From: a virus
Taxonomy: Duplodnaviria; Heunggongvirae; Uroviricota; Caudoviricetes
Direction: 5' to 3' (one strand)
IMG/VR virus record: IMGVR_UViG_2802429220_000004
DNA: 23,379 nucleotides
Shown: positions 212 to 18,772 of the stretch, one piece after another
How positions within the stretch are numbered: position 1 is the first letter of the stretch
Layout of the letters: each line of letters opens with the position of its first letter
Position numbers and translations under genes: made by a program
Notes under the pieces: generated by a model
What the model was told of the DNA's origin: nothing
What the model saw: only the letters and a program-made list of their open reading frames with translations
The model's database searches: none

Positions 212-1255
212 TTATTTTATACGAATAAACAGTGACTTCCCTGTCGACATCCCTACATATCCAAGGCAACGCCATGTCCCTGACAGAGTGACAGCCGAGT
301 TGTCGAAACTTACATCAGCATCATAAGAAGATGACGGGCGCAACTGGCTGGCTGCAACACTGTCGCCATAGTCTGCTGTGCCTTCGTACATGGCATAAAC
401 CAGAGAACCTATATCCCCCGCACTGACCTGTTGAGCACCTGGTCCAGGATCGCCTTTATCACCTTTCGGACCCTGCGCACCTGCCGGGCCTGCGGCTCCC
501 GTATCCCCTTTAGGTCCCTGTGGCCCTGCCGGGCCTGCGGCTCCCGTATCCCCTTTTGGTCCCGGTGGCCCCGCCGGGCCTGCAGCTCCCGTATCCCCTT
601 TCGGTCCCTGCGGTCCTGCCGGACCTGTGGCTCCTGTATCCCCTTTTGGTCCCTGCGGCCCCGCCGGGCCTGCAGCTCCTGTATCCCCCTTGTCGCCCTT
701 CGGTCCCTGTGGACCTCCCGGGTCGCCCTGCTCACCTTTCGGGCCGGTATCCCCCTTATCGCCCTTGTCTCCTTTATCCCCCTTTGGCCCCTGTGGGCCT
801 GTATCACCCTTGTCTCCCTTCTGTCCCTGCGGACCCGTTGCTCCGGTGTCGCCTTTCGGTCCCTGTGGTCCCACCGCCGTTTCCGCTTTCCTCGCCGCTT
901 CCTCTGCCCTGCTGACAGCCGCATCCGCCGCGTCTTCCAGTTTTTTCAGCGACTCAGGGTAATAAGTGCTGTCCTGCTCACGCAGCAAAAACGCATTCAG
1001 TGTGCCCGGCTCGTCGTCTGCCATGACGTCAATCTCGCCAGCGCATGCCGGCTGACGGCCTTCCACGCACAGGGTCACACGATAACGCCCCGGCTCAACC
1101 TGCATGGTGTAACTGCCTGTTTCCCCTGGCTGACACTCCGCCACCGTGGTGACTATCACCGTCTCACTCGTTCGCGTGGCTTTCAGCTCTATGGTGCAGT
1201 CCGGTACCGGTTTTCCTGTACCATCCTTCAGCACACCTGAAATCTGTACTGACAT
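212..1255 (-). CDS. stf: Side tail fiber protein (lambda Stf-like N-terminal domain) with a central collagen-like Gly-X-Y region
   Basis: N-terminus [17 protein letters not shown]...GTLNAFL parallels lambda Stf ([17 protein letters not shown]...GTLNDFL); about 140 aa of uninterrupted G-X-Y triplets ([16 protein letters not shown]...); ATG at 1255 preceded by a G-rich SD. Confidence 0.85.
446..877. repeat. Tandem 45-bp (and 9/18-bp sub-period) DNA repeats encoding the collagen-like Gly-X-Y region of the tail fiber
   Basis: Near-identical units such as ggtccctg(c/t)ggccc(c/t)gccgggcctgc(a/g)gctcc(c/t)gtatcccct recur head-to-tail; the repeat keeps several frames open on both strands. Confidence 0.85.
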
Positions 1256-5607: not shown

Positions 5608-6288
5608 TTACCCCTGCCGCCCGATAACCACGACCTTTCCGCCCCCGCCTTCATCACGGGTGCTGATGTCCTGGGATATACGGCGGGAGCCAACCAGCAT
5701 TTCCCCGTAAGGCACCGGCATCGGGTTCCCCTGGGCAATCATGTTATCCAGCGAGGAAAAGTACGTGTTCTGTCTGCCGTTATCCGTTGCGCGGTAATCC
5801 GGTGTTTTTGCCTTCGGGGCCAGCATCTGGGCCACACCGCCCAGAATCATGCTGGCTCCCAGTGAAAACAGCATCGTGGTGGCAGAAAAACCGCCGGCAC
5901 TCAGGGCTGTACCCCATAACGCCATCGAGGCACCGGCAGTGAAGAAAGAGCCCACGATGGCTGCCGCCCCCAGCACAATCTGCAGTCCACCCTTTCCGGC
6001 CCCGGCCAGTCGCGGCACAATGTGGATGACCGTTCCCTCACCCAGCTGTTCGTGAAGACGGGCGTACACCGCCTCCGGTGCCGTGTCCTCACCGCGAATA
6101 CGTATCTGGTACCAGCCTTCGTTCATCTGACGGCGGAATCCCGGCATCTGCATCGACAGGGCACGGATGGCTTCCGCTGCCGTGTTCACATACAGGCTGA
6201 GGCGGCGGCCAAATCGTTGCAAATCCCCGTGAAGGCAGATGCGTGCCAGTGGCGGTGACGCCAGACAGAATGCGTTCGTCGTTGCCAT
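5608..6288 (-). CDS. I: Tail assembly protein I
   Basis: Strong similarity to lambda I (…RICLHGDLQRFGRR…, glycine-rich hydrophobic middle, C-terminal …GGKVVVIGRQG). Confidence 0.9.
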   Translation of the reverse strand: MATTNAFCLASPPLARICLHGDLQRFGRRLSLYVNTAAEAIRALSMQMPGFRRQMNEGWYQIRIRGEDTAPEAVYARLHEQLGEGTVIHIVPRLAGAGKGGLQIVLGAAAIVGSFFTAGASMALWGTALSAGGFSATTMLFSLGASMILGGVAQMLAPKAKTPDYRATDNGRQNTYFSSLDNMIAQGNPMPVPYGEMLVGSRRISQDISTRDEGGGGKVVVIGRQG

Positions 6289-6929
6289 TTTTCGGAATAC
6301 CTCTCCCGTTTACTCAGTTGTTCAGGCAGATGGTGAAGCAGTTCACCGTTGCCGCAGTAAATGGCGGCATGATTGGCCACCGATGCGCCAAAGCAGCACA
6401 GCAGGATATCGCCCGCCTGTGCAGAGGACAGGGGCACCCGGTAAAAGCCTGTGACCGCCATATTGTCCAGGTAAAGGTTCTGACCGTTGCGCCACCAGTC
6501 ATCCTCACGCACAAAATCCGGCAGCGTTATCCCCGCCAGATGGTATGCATCCCGGAACAGGGTGTAACAGTCCGTCACCCCGTGCTCAAAACGACGCCCA
6601 GTCAGGTGCGGCACACAGCGGAATTTGTGAATTTCCCCCCGGCAGACCAGCCACCAGGGCAGGGCACTCTTTATCTGCAGCCGCCGGTCCGCCTCGCTCA
6701 GCCAGGGCAGACCACCGGGGTGGCTGTGAACCAGCGCCACAATCTCCCCCTGCATCTCTGCCTGCAGCCAGTCTTCCGGCGCAATACGAAAATACGCCTC
6801 CGGCTCTGCGGAGATATTCACGCAGGGCTGGTACCGTTCGCCCTCCGGGGTGCCTATCACGAAGCCGCACAACTCCGCAGGCGCACACCGCCGGGCATGC
6901 ACCAGAATCGCTGATTCAGTCTGTGTCAT
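6186..6929 (-). CDS. K: Tail assembly protein K (JAB/MPN metalloprotease-like plus NlpC/P60-like domains)
   Basis: JAMM-like motif VALVHSHPGGLPWLSEAD, downstream Cys/His of an NlpC/P60-type fold; start set at the ATG for MTQTESAIL (6929), just after the L stop; 3' end overlaps the I start. Confidence 0.85.
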   Translation of the reverse strand: MTQTESAILVHARRCAPAELCGFVIGTPEGERYQPCVNISAEPEAYFRIAPEDWLQAEMQGEIVALVHSHPGGLPWLSEADRRLQIKSALPWWLVCRGEIHKFRCVPHLTGRRFEHGVTDCYTLFRDAYHLAGITLPDFVREDDWWRNGQNLYLDNMAVTGFYRVPLSSAQAGDILLCCFGASVANHAAIYCGNGELLHHLPEQLSKRERYSEKWQRRTHSVWRHRHWHASAFTGICNDLAAASACM

Positions 6930-6939
6930 AAAACAGGAT

Positions 6940-7638
6940 TTACTGCGAAAGTTTATTGATGGAAAGGAAACCGCCAAAATTAGCCACCATGCCGCGCATC
7001 TCACACCCGCGCATGCACTTGCTGCATCTGTCCTTACGGATATCGGTGGTGGGTTTATCGAACTCATCCGCCACAGCCCCGCCCGTGTAACCACACTCAT
7101 CAGAGCGGTAGGTCCACATACAGGTATTCGCCAGCATAATGCGACCGGGAAACAGCGCCCCGTCCGTCTCCGTCGGTGTCGCCAGCACAAACGAGGCTGT
7201 CATGGCCGTCAGCTCTGACATCTGCTCCACCACCCAGCGGTCGCTCAGCTCCTGCTCCGGGTCCGCTTCCGGATTGCCCGCCACAAAATTCACCGCATCC
7301 AGAAAACGGGCATACACCCGGCGGCGGACCACCGTTGCCCCCACCAGGCTCTGCAGGTCCTCCGCCATCCCGGTGACCAGACCAAACAGATTGGACACCG
7401 TCAGCGACGGGCGGGCACTGCTGCCCTTCCCGTTCATCTCAAAACCGCTGCCGTCAATCGGGTATACCTGATATTGCCGCCCCTGCCAGGTGACCGCCTC
7501 CCCTTTTTCATTCAGCTCATTGCAGAAAAAATAGCGCTCACCGCCCTGCACCGTCAGGTCAATTTCCCAGAGCACCACCCGCGGTGACTGCTCTGATTTA
7601 ACCGACTCGTTCAGGCTTTCTTCATGAATATTCTGCAT
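6940..7638 (-). CDS. L: Minor tail protein L
   Basis: Co-linear with lambda L including the C-terminal cysteine cluster (…DECGYTGG…CSKCMRGC…) and …NFGGFLSINKLSQ. Confidence 0.9.
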   Translation of the reverse strand: MQNIHEESLNESVKSEQSPRVVLWEIDLTVQGGERYFFCNELNEKGEAVTWQGRQYQVYPIDGSGFEMNGKGSSARPSLTVSNLFGLVTGMAEDLQSLVGATVVRRRVYARFLDAVNFVAGNPEADPEQELSDRWVVEQMSELTAMTASFVLATPTETDGALFPGRIMLANTCMWTYRSDECGYTGGAVADEFDKPTTDIRKDRCSKCMRGCEMRGMVANFGGFLSINKLSQ

Positions 7639-11950: not shown

Positions 11951-12667
11951 TTATCCGCCCGCACCATTAACCGTTACTGTACACGCATCAGAGGTAATGC
12001 TCTGCGGCTGTTCTGCAGAATCCGTTACCTCGCAGGTATAAGCCCCCTTATCACCTGACTGCGTATTGGCTTTACTGAAAGTGTCAGTAGTCTGTCCCTC
12101 TACCGGCTGACCATCCTTCTTCCAGGCGTGTTTATAAGGCGGCGTTCCCCCGTTGACACTGACTGACATTGTCAGCAGCGCACCGGTATTCACGGTAAGT
12201 GTCTTCTCCAGATTTTTCACAAACGCCAGCGGTACCACATAGGACACCGGTTTACCCTTCAGGCGAAGTGAAAACGTTGCAGCCACCACGCCGTTGGTAC
12301 CGGATGACCAGGTGTGCTGACGCACTTCCGCCAGGAACTTAAAGCCCTTACCGGACGGAAACTGCACCTTAAACGCATACACCGTGTCATTGTCATAGGC
12401 ATCACGCAGGGCGTTCTGGGCCTGATTCAGATAAAAATTACCCGACATGGAAATCTCGGACGACGCCCCCAGACCGTTGATGTTCTCCTGCTCTGTGGAG
12501 CAGAGCGTGGTCACATCAATATCCTGTTTCTGACCGGCGGTGAACTGGACTTCCTTGATGGTGCAGTCCAGGCGCAGATATTCCGCCTTATCCATAGTTT
12601 CAGCAGTCGCCGGGGCAGATGAAATCATCACCTGCGTCAGCTGTGAGCGTTCATACAAAGCAGACAT
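11951..12667 (-). CDS. Major tail protein with a C-terminal Ig-like domain
   Basis: Sits in the lambda V position; C-terminal roughly 90 aa look like a bacterial Ig-like fold (…TVNTGALLTMSVSVNGGTPPYKHAWKKDGQPV…AYTCEVTD…); start set at the ATG for MSALYERS (12667) with AGGAGG six nt upstream. Confidence 0.8.
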   Translation of the reverse strand: MSALYERSQLTQVMISSAPATAETMDKAEYLRLDCTIKEVQFTAGQKQDIDVTTLCSTEQENINGLGASSEISMSGNFYLNQAQNALRDAYDNDTVYAFKVQFPSGKGFKFLAEVRQHTWSSGTNGVVAATFSLRLKGKPVSYVVPLAFVKNLEKTLTVNTGALLTMSVSVNGGTPPYKHAWKKDGQPVEGQTTDTFSKANTQSGDKGAYTCEVTDSAEQPQSITSDACTVTVNGAGG

Positions 12668-12683
12668 TCTGCCTCCTGATAAT

Positions 12684-12706
12684 AAAAAACCCGCACGCGG
12701 CGGGGT
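12684..12706 (-). terminator. Short GC hairpin plus U-run immediately upstream of the major tail gene
   Basis: On the minus strand CCCGC-CGCGT-GCGGG followed by TTTTTTATTAT, then the AGGAGG SD. Confidence 0.4.
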
Positions 12707-12732
12707 ATGGGTTTTGTAGAAAAAAGAAAAAG

Positions 12733-13077
12733 TCACACCGTGACCTGAAACTCCAGGGTTGCACGGTAACAGCGGTTTTCCGGAATATAGTCCTGCATTT
12801 CACTGACGGATCCCGGGGCCAGCAGCATTATGGCTTCACGGGCGTCCTGACGTATCTGACGCGCCTGCGTCACAGTCCCGGCATAAACGTCTATCTGCAC
12901 CGACACTGAGGACTCCGCCTGCCCGCCCATCACGTCCGCCGACACCGATGAAATCAGGCTGAAAACCACCCACGGAAGCGCCACCGACGGCCTGCCATCC
13001 AGCAGGGGGACCACATACGGGTACACCTGCCCGCCGGCAAGATGCGCCAGATGAGGATACAAATCCGCCTCCGTCAT
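12733..13077 (-). CDS. Tail terminator protein (lambda U-like)
   Basis: Position directly upstream of the major tail gene; …LLDGRPSVALPWVVF… resembles the lambda U FFDGRPAVFDEADFPAV region. Confidence 0.6.
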   Translation of the reverse strand: MTEADLYPHLAHLAGGQVYPYVVPLLDGRPSVALPWVVFSLISSVSADVMGGQAESSVSVQIDVYAGTVTQARQIRQDAREAIMLLAPGSVSEMQDYIPENRCYRATLEFQVTV

Positions 13078-13877: not shown

Positions 13878-14204
13878 TCATAACACCGTCGGACAACGCA
13901 AATCGTAAATCAGCACGGACACAGAAAACGGCAGTTCCCCCTGCACGAGGTCTTCCCGCTCAGCAAGATCCGGATTCCGGTACAGCATCCCGGTCAGTCG
14001 CATGGCAGCCCCCTTCATCCGGGTTAATGCCTCGCCCGGGATCAGCTCACCGTCCTCACGAATCACTTTATCCCGGCTGCCCTGAATGTAGGCCAGCAGC
14101 ACGGCGGTAGCCTGACGAACCTTGTCCATCAGCATGTCATCATCCGCGTCATGGTCAACACGCAGATGTGCCTTGATCTCTTCCAGTGTCAGTAATGCCG
14201 TCAT
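13878..14204 (-). CDS. Head-tail connector protein (gp6-like)
   Basis: N-terminus MTALLTLEEIKAHLRVDHDADDDML… is typical of gp6-like connector proteins. Confidence 0.7.
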   Translation of the reverse strand: MTALLTLEEIKAHLRVDHDADDDMLMDKVRQATAVLLAYIQGSRDKVIREDGELIPGEALTRMKGAAMRLTGMLYRNPDLAEREDLVQGELPFSVSVLIYDLRCPTVL

Positions 14205-15262
14205 TTTCCGCCTCCTGCATCCCGTCCACGTTTTGCAGCCAGGGTCCAGCCTGATGAATGAGCTTCTCCGGGTTTATCACCGGTCATACTGTTGCAGTGC
14301 CACAGCGAGCCCCCCCACGTCACCGTATCGCCGGGGTGGTAGGTTTCACCGGCTCTGAACACACCGCGGTAGAGCATCACCGGCAGGGAAAATGTTTTTT
14401 CCGTACACTGGCCACTGCTCTGCCGGATCACCACAGAGAACAACCGCTCATCCGTCATGCTGACGTCGATATCCGCCACCCCGTCAACCAGGCATTCCCA
14501 TCCCCGCATCCCGTGCGTTTTTTCATACGCCCGCCAGAGTCCACCCAGGTGTGTGGCATACGTGCCCCGGGGAAAGGATTTTTGATCGTCAATAGCGGGG
14601 AGCACTTCCAGTGCCGTGGCATCACGCCCGTCCTGCGGAGCCGGAAGGGCATTCACCGCCTCCAGAACCGCCTGCTTCAGTACTTCCGGATCGTAATCAC
14701 GACCATCACGCGGAGCAGGGATATGGCTTACGGCCTCTTTCACCATCTGCTCAAGCATCGGACGCACATCATCCGGGGTGAGACTTTTACCGTCCGCCGG
14801 CTGCGGAATATTTGCGACCGCATCATTCACCGCCTGCCTCAGTACTTCCGGATCGTAGTCACGACCATCACGCGGAACAGGAATATGGCTTACAGCCTCT
14901 TTCACCATCTGCTCAAGCATCGGACGCACATCATCGGGGGTGATACTTTTGCCGTCTGCCGGCACCGGTATTTTCGCGACCGCATCATTCACCGCCTGCT
15001 TCAGTACTTCCGGATCATAATCGCGACCATCACGCGGTAGCGGAATGGCCCCCACTGCGTCATCCACCATCGCCTGCAGAACAGGGCTAACCTCATCCAC
15101 CGTCACATGCTTCTGTAACAGAGCGGACAGGGAAGCCAGTTTCTCTTCAAACGCTTGTGCCTGCGCGCTCATCTTCTCCTCAAATGTGCGCTGTAAATCC
15201 GCCAGCACCGTGGCGAATTCTTCTCCCAGGGCACGAATAATGGACAGTTCACGTTCATTCAT
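14201..15262 (-). CDS. Repeat-containing head-module protein (possible decoration or fibre protein): coiled-coil N-terminus, about 2.7 tandem 54-aa repeats, C-terminal possible carbohydrate-binding domain
   Basis: Repeats IPxPRDGRDYDPEVLxQAVNDAVAxIPxPADGKSxTPDDVRPMLEQMVKEAVSH; C-terminal …YHPGDTVTWGGSLWHCNSMTGDKPGE…GWTLA resembles a CBM5/12-type motif; ATGA overlap with the portal stop. Confidence 0.6.
   Translation of the reverse strand: MNERELSIIRALGEEFATVLADLQRTFEEKMSAQAQAFEEKLASLSALLQKHVTVDEVSPVLQAMVDDAVGAIPLPRDGRDYDPEVLKQAVNDAVAKIPVPADGKSITPDDVRPMLEQMVKEAVSHIPVPRDGRDYDPEVLRQAVNDAVANIPQPADGKSLTPDDVRPMLEQMVKEAVSHIPAPRDGRDYDPEVLKQAVLEAVNALPAPQDGRDATALEVLPAIDDQKSFPRGTYATHLGGLWRAYEKTHGMRGWECLVDGVADIDVSMTDERLFSVVIRQSSGQCTEKTFSLPVMLYRGVFRAGETYHPGDTVTWGGSLWHCNSMTGDKPGEAHSSGWTLAAKRGRDAGGGK
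14650..15045. repeat. Tandem 162-bp DNA repeat (about 2.5 to 3 copies) inside the 353-aa gene
   Basis: For example atatggcttac(g/a)gcctctttcaccatctgctcaagcatcggacgcacatcatc starts at 14721 and again at 14883. Confidence 0.85.
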
Positions 15263-16623
15263 TTTTTCAGAATCCCCCTGAACATCGCTTTCACCGCATC
15301 ATGCTCTGTTTCACTGATTGCCTTATTACCGTCAGATGCGCCGTCAGGCGGTTGCGCTAAGGCCGTTTTCCCGGTCGACGCGAACGGATCCTCACGGGCA
15401 TCACGACGGGACAGTGCCTCCAGACTGTAGTTCTGCTGCTGAAGATACAGTGCATCACCGCCGGCCAGGGGCGGCAGGTTCTCCCGTTTACGGGCCTCAT
15501 TGGGCGTGAGAAGCGTATTTTTCACCGCATCCCCCAGCGTTTTCATGCGCCGCTCACTGTCCATTCTCAGCAGCGTGGTGACATCAAATTCTGTACTCTC
15601 GTTTTCCCCCGTTTCCAGCGCCTCATCCAGTAACAGTTCAATGGACTCAATCAGCGTCTGCAGGCACTGGGAATAATACTGCTGCTCCAGCGCCTCCACG
15701 TTGTCACTGGAAGGCGGTTGTCCCACGCCAATCTTGTAGGCCGGGACACGGAACACCGAACAGACAATTTCAGCGGTCATCTTCAGTTGTTCCACCGTCT
15801 GCGCATCCACCGGTGAAAACGTCGTGGGGTTATATTTTGCCCCGTTGCTCAGAATGGCCGTTTTCCCCGCATTTTCGCCGGTATACCCGCTGTCCCAGTT
15901 GCTCTTCAGTTTTTTCGCATTTTCTTCCGTAATACTGCCGGGGATCTCAATCACCCCGGACGGCATGCCGCCATTTCTGAAAAAATACGTCGAATTTTCC
16001 TGAATATGATGCCCCTGCGTGGCGGCCAGCCCGGCGGCATACACCGGCGGCAACCCTATAAGCGGATGAAAAAAACAGTTAAACCGGTCGTGGATCACTT
16101 CCCGGGCAGGCACCGTCACCGCCTCAGTGATCCCGCAGTTCCGGTCCGGCGTGATGCGGTAGAACACTTCGCCGTCATCCGCCACCAGTGGTTCAACCCG
16201 GCTCCAGTCCAGAATGCGCAGTTCTTTGATCTGCCCCCGGGAGTTACGGATTTTCAGCACCACCGTATTGCCGTGACGCAGTTTGGCGTTCAGCCACAGT
16301 TCAAAAAACTGGATGCGGTTCTGCTGGGCGTTGGGACGACGACAGAGGCGGGCAATATCCCCCCGGCGAGTTTCCCTGCGTATCCCCTGCGCATCCGTCT
16401 GCATAAGACGCAGCCGCATTTTGGCGATATCCTGGGATATCAGCGAAATGCACGAAAACACCGCATGAAAGGAGAGGACGGCTTCCGGATCGGCTTTCAC
16501 GCCCTGCTGCCAGGCGCCGGAAAAGGGCTCAGCCACCGCCTGAAACAGGCTGGTCCAGCCCGCCTCTCTTACGTCACGTCCTGATTTCTGGTTTTTTCGG
16601 GTTCGCTGTAAAAGGTTCCACAT
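15259..16623 (-). CDS. Portal protein, HK97 family
   Basis: Size (454 aa) and the …QLKMTAEIVCSVFRVPAYKIG… motif match the HK97-family portal signature as I recall it. Confidence 0.85.
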   Translation of the reverse strand: MWNLLQRTRKNQKSGRDVREAGWTSLFQAVAEPFSGAWQQGVKADPEAVLSFHAVFSCISLISQDIAKMRLRLMQTDAQGIRRETRRGDIARLCRRPNAQQNRIQFFELWLNAKLRHGNTVVLKIRNSRGQIKELRILDWSRVEPLVADDGEVFYRITPDRNCGITEAVTVPAREVIHDRFNCFFHPLIGLPPVYAAGLAATQGHHIQENSTYFFRNGGMPSGVIEIPGSITEENAKKLKSNWDSGYTGENAGKTAILSNGAKYNPTTFSPVDAQTVEQLKMTAEIVCSVFRVPAYKIGVGQPPSSDNVEALEQQYYSQCLQTLIESIELLLDEALETGENESTEFDVTTLLRMDSERRMKTLGDAVKNTLLTPNEARKRENLPPLAGGDALYLQQQNYSLEALSRRDAREDPFASTGKTALAQPPDGASDGNKAISETEHDAVKAMFRGILKK

Positions 16624-16790
16624 TCGCCATGCTCCGCATCACGTTTCTTTTTCTGACCTGCCGGACGTCGCACCGTGATGTACTCCGCCTTTCCCAGGCG
16701 AACCAGCACCTCCGCGCACGGCTGTGCCACATCACGGATATCCCCGGCCCGGGCATCATGCGTGCCCTGCAGATATCGGATCTTTGCCAT
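16569..16790 (-). CDS. Hypothetical small protein (73 aa) between capsid and portal genes
   Basis: ORF in the track; 3' end overlaps the portal start by 55 nt in another frame; no SD adjacent to the ATG, but an AAGGAGGA lies 5' of a strong hairpin. Confidence 0.35.
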   Translation of the reverse strand: MAKIRYLQGTHDARAGDIRDVAQPCAEVLVRLGKAEYITVRRPAGQKKKRDAEHGECGTFYSEPEKTRNQDVT

Positions 16791-16834: not shown

Positions 16835-18772
16835 TCAGCCGCCGGACGCACTGCCGTAGTTCACACCGGTGATCACCGCCACCGCCGCGGTACGGCGACG
16901 ACGCCAGTTGATCCAGCGCTCCGCACGGATGGCCACACTGCCTGTCTGGAACATGGAAACCAGCTCCACCGGCGACGGCGTGGTACTGTCGCCGGTCGGC
17001 TCAGACTGCATTTCCAGTGATGCCTCGCGGGACATATCCACTGCCACGCCGCCGTCATCCGCCAGATAAATATCCGGGGCATTCACCAGCACCAGCTGGT
17101 CACCCACGTACTGGGAGACAATCACCGGCAGCCCCTGGAAGGTCCCCCCCAGCAGGGTCATGTCCGGGTATTCCTTCTGACCCAGCGCATTTTTACGCAT
17201 GGACAGCGCCAGGGCATTGGTGCTGGACATCAGCCAGACCGCACCGGTGGGCTGCAGGTTTGCTGCCACAAACTGTCCAAACGCCGCCTCTGCATCCGCA
17301 TCCGGGTTACCGGTTGATGCCTTGCCCTTCACATCATGGGTGATGGACGCCGGGGAGACATCTGCCACTGCGGCTTTTTTCGGGTCCACAAAGTCTGTGT
17401 CCAGACGCGCCACCACCGCTTCTGCCAGCGCATTACGGACCAGCGCATCAGCTGCCGGACTGGAAAAACGGATCAGCTCTTCCGTCAGTACCGCAATGGC
17501 CGACACCTTCGCATGACTGAAGGTGATGGATTCAAAATCAAACTTCGTCAGGGGTTTTGCCTTACCCTCACCCACCCAGCCGGCAGCACCGCCGGACACC
17601 TGGGCGTGCACACGGATATTGAACGGCACCTGACGAAGTGCAGGGATCCCGCCCTGACCAAATCGCCCGATAATGGTCTGCGGACGCAGGTAATCAATAA
17701 AGTCCTGTGCGTATTCCTGATATTCAGACAGGCTGCCTGCCCACTGCGGATCCGTGGTGGTCCCCGCGCCCACTGCCGATTTCAGGACATGATGCAGACG
17801 ACTGTCATCCGGATACTGACGACGGGCCACTTCCAGGGCTTCAGAGCGGACACCTTTAGCCGCAGCCAGTGATTTGGCAAAGCGGGCGAAGCCAATCCCC
17901 TTATCCAGTTTCTGCTCCACACGGATCACCGGCGCTGAAGCCACCGCGGCCACATTCCCGTTACCGGCCTGTTTCACCGGCTGCGCCGTGGCGGCCTTAC
18001 CGGCTTCCAGTTCACGCAGGCGCTTCAGGTGCGCATCCACCTGACGGATTTCCGCTGCGGTGTTGTCGTAATGCTCTTCCTCCTCCACATCCAGCGTGCG
18101 CCCTTCCTCTGCGGCTTTGGTCATGACCTCCTCAAGGGAGGCTGCCAGCGCTGCACGCTTGTTTTCAAAACTTTTAATCTGTTCGCCAATATTCATTATG
18201 GTCTTTTCCTTATGAAAAACGGTTGTTGACTGTGCCGCAGCGCCGGCAGAAGATGCGATTTTCACCACCGGTTTCCGGTTGCCGGACGCGGCAGAAAACT
18301 GGCGGTCGTAAGATTTAATGGTCCGGATGGTGCATTCCGCATTCGCGGGCACGGTGACGGCAGACACCTCCATCAGTTCCCAGCGCAGAAAATGCAGTCC
18401 GCCTCCGTCCAGAAAGGTGTATTCATGGGGACGGAAGCCCACGGACAGTCCCCTGACCAGCCCGGTCTTAATGGCCGCCCAGGCCTCATCCAGTCGGGCT
18501 GCCAGTTGCGATGGCATATCCGGCACAGGCTTCGCCAGTGTTGCCGTGATTTCCAGCCCTTCGCTGACCCGGCGCACCGTACACTGCCCCACCGGGCGGG
18601 AATGGTCATGCTGCCAGAGAAACGGGATCGCACTGCCGAACTCCGCCCCCTCCGGCTCCAGGATGTCACCATCCCGATCCGGAGAAGGCGTTGACGCAAT
18701 CCCGGTGATCACCCGCTCATCCTCACTGAAGGATTTCACCGTCAGCAGGGAGCAGGCCCGTTTAAGATTCAC
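16835..18772 (-). CDS. Prohead protease (HK97/S78-like) fused in frame to scaffold-like segment and HK97-fold major capsid protein
   Basis: N-terminal …FLWQHDHSRP…ELMEVSAVTVPANAE… protease motifs; middle coiled-coil segment; long C-terminal capsid-like domain; GTG start with AGGAGG five nt upstream; internal in-frame ATG at 18196. Confidence 0.85.
   Translation of the reverse strand: MNLKRACSLLTVKSFSEDERVITGIASTPSPDRDGDILEPEGAEFGSAIPFLWQHDHSRPVGQCTVRRVSEGLEITATLAKPVPDMPSQLAARLDEAWAAIKTGLVRGLSVGFRPHEYTFLDGGGLHFLRWELMEVSAVTVPANAECTIRTIKSYDRQFSAASGNRKPVVKIASSAGAAAQSTTVFHKEKTIMNIGEQIKSFENKRAALAASLEEVMTKAAEEGRTLDVEEEEHYDNTAAEIRQVDAHLKRLRELEAGKAATAQPVKQAGNGNVAAVASAPVIRVEQKLDKGIGFARFAKSLAAAKGVRSEALEVARRQYPDDSRLHHVLKSAVGAGTTTDPQWAGSLSEYQEYAQDFIDYLRPQTIIGRFGQGGIPALRQVPFNIRVHAQVSGGAAGWVGEGKAKPLTKFDFESITFSHAKVSAIAVLTEELIRFSSPAADALVRNALAEAVVARLDTDFVDPKKAAVADVSPASITHDVKGKASTGNPDADAEAAFGQFVAANLQPTGAVWLMSSTNALALSMRKNALGQKEYPDMTLLGGTFQGLPVIVSQYVGDQLVLVNAPDIYLADDGGVAVDMSREASLEMQSEPTGDSTTPSPVELVSMFQTGSVAIRAERWINWRRRRTAAVAVITGVNYGSASGG

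Follow-up and report, generated by a model that had tools for sequence, protein, structure and literature searches.

ORF X, a 353-codon open reading frame lodged between the portal and head-tail connector genes of a Shiga-toxin-type Escherichia coli prophage, is a real, constrained and separately encoded cistron coupled to the portal stop codon. We propose, at roughly even odds (a probability of about 0.5), that its product is translated on its own as an accessory structural protein of the HK97-type head module, built from a portal-vertex anchor, a spacer stalk and a glycan-binding knob. The N-terminal helix would hold X on or close to the portal vertex of the head, the repeats would act as an adjustable spacer, and the CBM5/12-like knob would bind polysaccharide, be it a host surface glycan, a mucus glycan or peptidoglycan; with such a glycan-binding knob, X would be a fibre- or whisker-like adhesion accessory and not an essential component of the shell. 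In E. coli, the insertion of one G into a tract of five (G5 to G6) turns the two genes into one that encodes a single portal-X polypeptide.

Genomic context of ORF X

The window, by which we mean the whole 23,379-nucleotide stretch of viral DNA that was analysed (IMG/VR record IMGVR_UViG_2802429220_000004), carries ORF X on its minus strand at 14201..15262, where it begins with ATG and encodes a protein of 353 aa (38.5 kDa, pI 4.9). Both the ORF itself and its position between the portal and connector genes had been put forward in the original prediction, and both were borne out. On one side lies an HK97-family portal gene of 454 aa (15259..16623, minus strand), in which the Pfam portal domain (PF04860, E = 1.6e-80) is complete at residues 54-382, and on the other a gp6-like head-tail connector gene (Ad1; 13878..14204, minus strand; PF05135), whose start overlaps the stop codon of X by 4 nt. 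After the connector, also on the minus strand, Pfam matches identify head completion, HK97 gp10-like, gp17-like tail completion and tail tube proteins. Preceding the portal gene, a prohead protease (S78) is fused to an HK97-type capsid protein in one ORF of 645 aa (16835-18772, minus strand; Pfam). A 73-aa ORF with no Pfam match (16569-16790, minus strand) shares 55 nt with the beginning of the portal gene, and Enterobacterales relatives keep it, at 46-58% identity, in the interval from the capsid gene to the portal gene.

Long-tailed Stx1a-, Stx2a- and Stx2c-converting phages share 93-96% identity with the DNA of the window. Of 5426 complete E. coli genomes, 1247 contain a match, at a median of 4 sites each; over X, one IMG/VR contig is 100% identical. 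The element that hosts X is the head module of a Shiga-toxin-type E. coli prophage, and long-tailed Stx1a, Stx2a and Stx2c phages, like related prophages, carry the gene among their head genes. X is under purifying selection in E. coli, where pN/pS is 0.23 over 132 codons of the C-terminal domain and 0.36 over 70 N-terminal codons.

Split and fused states of the portal-X junction

In the window the portal gene ends in ...ATG TTC AGG GGG ATT CTG AAA AAA TGA, and X begins with an ATG that shares bases with this TGA stop (ATGA overlap, 15259..15262, minus strand), preceded by a run of six A (15262-15267, minus strand). The five-G tract in the final portal codons AGG GGG (15274..15278, minus strand) is part of an AGGGGG that resembles a Shine-Dalgarno site, lies 11 nt ahead of the X start codon and looks like the one that serves X. 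A sixth G places portal and X in one frame, which continues ...FRGDSEKMNERELS..., and the fused protein of E. coli E2348/69, which reads ...FRGDTEKMTERELS..., corresponds to this six-G reading. The single portal-X ORF is 861 aa long in E2348/69 and 859 aa in phage 2851.

Among 87 E. coli-type copies (the window together with IMG/VR loci and phage and genome records), the tract is G5 and the genes split in 59, and it is G6 and the genes fused in 28, with both states seen on otherwise identical flanking haplotypes. X is split in three plaque-forming or induced phages, namely BP-4795 (G5, X of 461 aa), Lys8385Vzw (G5, X of 245 aa) and FSL SP-016, the last being a plaque-forming Salmonella phage in which the split junction has no G run (PMC3728262). 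Sequencing error as the source of the G5/G6 difference was ruled out, given that finished or Sanger-era records show each state (G6 in E2348/69 and 2851, G5 in BP-4795 and Lys8385Vzw). Because each state is found in good-quality records of induced or lysogenising phages, the polymorphism is real. Moreover, pN/pS is similar in G5 and G6 copies, keeping in mind that prophage recombination limits the meaning of this comparison. Since the internal ATG and the Shine-Dalgarno are retained, fused alleles may still make free X.

X is neither a portal protein nor a pseudogene, and the labels "portal protein" and "frameshifted" are wrong for the split form. X makes up the C-terminal half, which can be detached, of the RefSeq "portal protein" and bears that name as a stand-alone gene too, and PGAP flags the split locus as a "frameshifted" portal. 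Pfam gives no PF04860 match in X, the portal domain lying whole in the upstream ORF, and PHROG "portal" matches to X cover either positions 648-859 of an 859-position profile or a 331-position profile that is X itself. The gene of X adjoins that of the HK97-family portal (PF04860), and G6 alleles join X covalently to the portal C-terminus, whereas X itself has no portal domain. X carries the portal label because fused portal-X references exist, and the "frameshifted" flag arises when the split form meets a fused reference. The native split portal and X are marked "frameshifted" or "pseudogene" in E. coli chromosomes L004 and L005 and in phage records AP012540 and AP012530. Such mislabelling of the split form may inflate counts of "defective" prophages. 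The name "gp6-like head-tail connector, partial", borne by Klebsiella, Enterobacter and Salmonella homologues, proved to be an annotation artefact, as these proteins end with the X C-terminus and have no gp6 domain.

The flag does raise the question of whether the true gene is the single long portal-X, with the G5 copies either frameshift pseudogenes or dependent on programmed -1 slippage on the G5 or the A6 run to produce the fusion. Beyond the PGAP flag on G5 copies, it would accord with this that a -1 shift anywhere from the G run to the stop gives the exact fused frame and that the UGA stop is abutted by the A6 run. Yet G5 is the majority state, at 59/87 copies, and was already recorded, by Sanger-era sequencing, in phages that had been induced or were infective; relatives that lack the G run, such as FSL SP-016, are split; and in distant relatives the two genes either overlap, in one or the other alternative frame, or are separated by a gap. 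A programmed -1 frameshift site was also rejected, as the portal frame contains no canonical X XXY YYZ heptamer and the downstream RNA folding has z = -1.07, the hairpin nearest to the junction lying ~40 nt downstream with a structure that is not significant. Because there is no in-frame heptamer, no fixed frame relation and no significant downstream structure, programmed frameshifting is unsupported, and we regard the single long gene as very improbable.

It is conceivable that the G5/G6 tract, possibly together with low-level -1 slippage, forms a heritable switch between a free glycan-binding stalk protein and one tethered to the twelve portal subunits, an idea that we consider a long shot. 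If it were true, related Stx phages would build two different portal-vertex architectures, and identical haplotypes with both G states would represent recurrent switching, not decay. In the nested lambda genes C/Nu3 and in the lambda G/GT frameshift, two products have a C-terminal part in common, or a short slippery stretch links two frames. In contrast, the join at X is a genomic 1-nt indel polymorphism with no conserved recoding signal.

Family distribution and the native gene arrangement

A search with the C-terminal domain of X against representatives of 1.84 billion proteins returned 5382 clusters at 50% identity (E <= 1e-3). Among the matches listed, nearly all stand alone, measure 200-460 aa and carry the domain C-terminally, and one is a portal fusion of 1237 aa. 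The family thus spans more than 5000 such clusters across Proteobacteria, and no characterised member was found. In 80 loci, each species being represented by a single genome, protease-capsid, portal and X recur in this order, usually followed by a gp6-like connector; the species sampled belong to Enterobacterales, Pseudomonas, Burkholderiales, Marinobacter, Rhizobiales, Sphingomonadales, Caulobacterales and Acetobacteraceae, and X stands downstream of the portal gene at ~70 loci from alpha-, beta- and gammaproteobacteria. In distant relatives the X start and the portal stop overlap by 1, 4, 8, 14, 16 or 19 nt or are separated by a short gap, the overlap falls in either alternative frame, and a GGAG-like motif lies 6-12 nt upstream of X.

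Because stand-alone X is near-universal, the overlaps vary among relatives and FSL SP-016 is split without a G run, the two-gene, translationally coupled arrangement is the ancestral one. The E. coli G6 alleles and the portal-X fusion proteins of Pantoea (L112 and P0144, 1237-1243 aa) are accordingly secondary, independent end-to-start fusions.

Two further observations concern the outlying members of the family. Sphingomonas sp. PsM26 (L157, positions 6204-7177, and L160) encodes a miniature X of 97-104 aa that consists only of the N-terminal helix and the CBM5/12-like module. It lies directly 3' of a lone S78 protease ORF of 217 aa, among non-phage neighbours that include a large methylase-like ORF, and could be either a remnant or some satellite-like element. 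Separately, PF28083.1 is precomputed on X homologues that have the N-terminal and repeat parts.

N-terminal helix and full-length model

Residues 1-52 of X (15107..15262, minus strand) are predicted to form a single long amphipathic helix, which AlphaFold2 places at residues 3-50 with a pLDDT of ~70-79; from the hydrophobic spacing, a coiled coil at this end is plausible. The start motif MNERELSxIxAxxEE is kept in the alignment of Enterobacterales homologues. The full-length AlphaFold2 model is weak (mean pLDDT 62, stalk <50), and therefore only secondary structure was read from it, with no fold search. It contains the helix at residues 3-50, six helices of 12-17 residues separated by low-confidence loops of 12-14 residues, and the beta domain, so that a long helix is followed by segmented helix-loop units of low confidence in a fibre-like layout. 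Homologues share this plan of helix, stalk and beta domain with very different stalk lengths, which range across the family from ~50 to >600 residues.

Repeat stalk and copy-number variation

The stalk comprises residues 53-209 (14636..15106, minus strand), in which A and B sub-repeats of 27 aa each alternate. Tandem Repeats Finder reports an array at 14667-15037 (period 162, 2.3 copies, 91% matches, score 630), which is far beyond chance, and a repeat search found three in-register 162-nt copies at 14655-15140 with identities of 100, 88 and 60%. At the protein level, residues 75-128 and 129-182 each make up a complete 54-aa unit, with half a unit on either side of the pair, and the two complete units differ at 17 of 162 nt, changing 10 codons synonymously and 5 non-synonymously. 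The proposed 54-aa tandem repeats encoded by 162-bp units are thus present, and calling them near-identical was a slight overstatement, since the best pair is ~90% identical. Each 54-aa unit is in turn composed of two 27-aa sub-repeats, each with a helix of 12-17 residues followed by a PxPxDG(R/K) loop, and the stalk is strongly acidic (pI 4.4).

The further expectation that the locus would vary in copy number agrees with the alleles of natural isolates, which differ by whole 54-aa units. Among E. coli phages and prophages, X measures 245, 299, 353, 407, 461, 515 or 569 aa, each length exceeding the one before by 54 aa (162 nt), and a minority of alleles are off-step or truncated (280, 325, 379 and 405 aa). 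By far the longest stalk observed belongs to the portal-X fusions of Candidatus Pantoea communis (L112) and P0144, with some 25 or more repeats, each made of a helix and the motif (L/E)P(D/E)PxPLPDI. In the databases, X and the fused portal appear mostly as "partial" entries, because short-read contigs stop inside the 162-bp repeats. The repeats break short-read assemblies in this way and could also serve as a typing marker.

With respect to a collagen-like trimeric fibre, for which runs of G-X-Y triplets are the hallmark, X has no such runs and contains only isolated DG(R/K)D motifs, none longer than DGRD. Homologues often have short G-X-Y runs (GKDGVDGKDGRD) of 3-5 consecutive triplets that flank the C-terminal domain on both sides. 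Matches of the single sequence to designed helical repeat proteins in the PDB were weak, repeat-driven and not meaningful, and those to NCBIfam QatB and to Pfam families such as TetR_C_35 and DUF6781, which fell far under the cut-offs and lay in the repetitive region, were rejected.

C-terminal domain and its likeness to CBM5/12

Residues 210-353 (14204..14635, minus strand) constitute the conserved core of the family, an all-beta domain that AlphaFold2 models with a pLDDT of 83.9 (C-terminal 149 residues, 31 sequences) and that shows 34 invariant columns in the family alignment. At about residues 297-343 (14234..14374, minus strand) it includes a CBM5/12-like module with the pattern YxxGDxVTWGGSxWxC...KPG...W.LA. 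The Pfam profile CBM_5_12 (PF02839) matches the whole of X at residues 303-325 with E = 0.0019 and 18.6 bits, and the C-terminal domain alone with E = 2e-4 and 21.7 bits, both below the gathering score of 26.2. All 31 of the 31 aligned family members match PF02839 at E <= 0.01 (best 3.1e-7), and many relatives of X carry a precomputed PF02839 assignment. Three aromatic residues (Y308, W321 and W339) do not vary within the family and a fourth, W316, hardly does, and the small three-stranded beta fold of chitin-binding domains is present in the module. The original prediction of a CBM5/12-like C-terminal segment is upheld by the relatives, with X itself under the curated cut-off. Likewise, the profile and structure predictions suggested there as a check do yield a CBM5/12-like fold, although the Pfam gathering score was missed. 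Structurally, the end module of X belongs with CBM5/12.

Structural searches gave a similar picture for the end module. Foldseek with the model of the C-terminal domain found no match in the PDB at E <= 0.001, and the first two-thirds of the domain have no confident PDB counterpart; a PDB profile search gave weak matches to the chitin-binding domains of chitinases and to a contractile-injection-system baseplate protein with the same motif. In the BFVD, the structural neighbours are collagen-repeat phage fibre proteins that carry ChiC_BD modules at their end.

The last ~50 residues of X have in common with the CBM5/12 domains of Serratia ChiB, Streptomyces griseus ChiC, Bacillus circulans ChiA1 and Erwinia EGZ both the small beta fold and the motif Y..GD.V.(W/Y).G..(W/Y)...P....W. 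Unlike in those enzymes, the module of X sits inside a larger beta domain of 140 residues and is accompanied by no enzyme domain. To the collagen-repeat ChiC_BD fibres (BFVD, uncultured Caudovirales) X is alike in its terminal knob (28-34% identity, 1.7-2.7 A, ~60 columns) and in having an elongated, repetitive stalk. However, those fibres are tail-module proteins with long G-X-Y stalks, whereas X is encoded in the head module beside the portal, its stalk is made of helix-loop repeats, and G-X-Y runs are only vestigial.

Location and role in the virion

That the helix anchors X near the portal is suggested by both independent fusions, which join X helix-first to the end of the portal. On which side of the shell the protein would then lie is a matter on which the evidence pulls in two directions. 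An exposed X is favoured by its acidity and by the features it shares with fibres. Yet in a viable phage X is fused to the portal C-terminus, which normally lies inside the capsid, and this speaks for an internal X. An internal X would be a portal-bound minor head protein whose helix docks on or extends the portal crown, in the manner of the P22 barrel or SPP1 gp7, and whose CBM-like domain acts after ejection, for example by binding peptidoglycan, or binds something in the head. The exact fusion to the portal C-terminus, made twice independently, is what this reading would lead one to expect; further, the fused form of the viable phage 2851 and the equal, unrelaxed constraint in fused copies accord with a place inside the head no less well than with a fibre outside it. 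The argument from the fused alleles weakens if free X is still made from the retained Shine-Dalgarno and ATG. The slot directly 3' of the portal is also the gene position of SPP1 gp7 and Mu F-type minor head proteins, which are encoded directly downstream of the portal. Against this stand the lack of similarity to Mu F, gp7 or ejection proteins and an acidity (pI 4.9, stalk 4.4) ill-suited to a place beside packed DNA; moreover, the extreme variation in stalk length, the G-X-Y runs and the CBM knob are hallmarks of external fibres, and a folded beta domain would have to unfold in order to leave through the tail. We consider an internal X unlikely, though a serious contender.

Several helical, elongated proteins at or near the portal or neck offer a comparison of a purely functional kind, among them the P22 portal barrel, SPP1 gp7 and Mu F, T4 fibritin (the neck whiskers) and phi29 gp8.5 (the head fibre). 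X is like SPP1 gp7 in gene position, and like fibritin and gp8.5 in having an N-terminal anchor, a coiled or segmented stalk and a C-terminal knob. No sequence or fold match links X to any of these proteins, and the Mu F domain (PF04233) had no match in X in Pfam, PHROGs, NCBIfam or the PDB. By sequence and fold comparison, X is not a member of the portal, Mu F/gp7 or any known decoration family.

A capsid-shell decoration or head fibre, the possibility raised in the original prediction, here taken as present in many copies on hexamers, trimers or vertices and with the portal fusions as neutral accidents, would share with the portal-anchored accessory that we favour its fibre-like architecture and CBM knob. 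The gene lies between the shell and neck genes, a frequent slot for decoration proteins, with a Shine-Dalgarno of its own, and the Sphingomonas mini-X adjoins a protease ORF with no portal nearby. However, synteny is with the portal and not with the capsid gene, the start of X overlaps the portal stop in nearly every lineage, similarity to known decoration families is absent and the fused alleles are intact and constrained, which makes a decoration protein rather improbable in our view. We deem still less probable, and indeed very unlikely, that X is a non-virion assembly factor, such as a portal chaperone or scaffold-like helper lost before maturation. It is acidic and elongated, helix-rich in its N-terminal two-thirds and co-translated with the portal, as such a helper might be; yet the capsid protein has its own protease and delta-type region, and a conserved CBM-type beta domain, a drifting stalk length and a tolerated portal fusion would all be unexpected for a scaffold.

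In the literature searched we found neither virion proteomics nor a structure for X, and X was not reported in the 2025 mass spectra of phi330, a phage of the same genus (PMC12502783). If X is the exposed glycan-binding fibre proposed here, it could affect the adherence of Stx phages to mucus or cell surfaces; if it is instead tethered to the portal inside the head, it would represent a new kind of portal accessory.

Other features of the window

Three observations were made elsewhere in the window. The protease-capsid ORF has an internal Met (...IMNIGEQIKSF...) where a coiled, delta-like region begins, and this Met could be a nested in-frame start of the capsid protein proper. The major tail tube protein, which is lambda-like (11951-12736, minus strand), has a C-terminal Ig-like domain with Ig_2 and I-set matches, a candidate for a second surface-adhesion module in the same virion. 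Finally, tandem repeats of 45, 27 and 36 nt at 457-872, in the ORF at 212-1255 (minus strand), encode collagen-like G-X-Y triplets; this 347-aa ORF, downstream of a J-like host-specificity gene, is presumably part of a side tail fibre.
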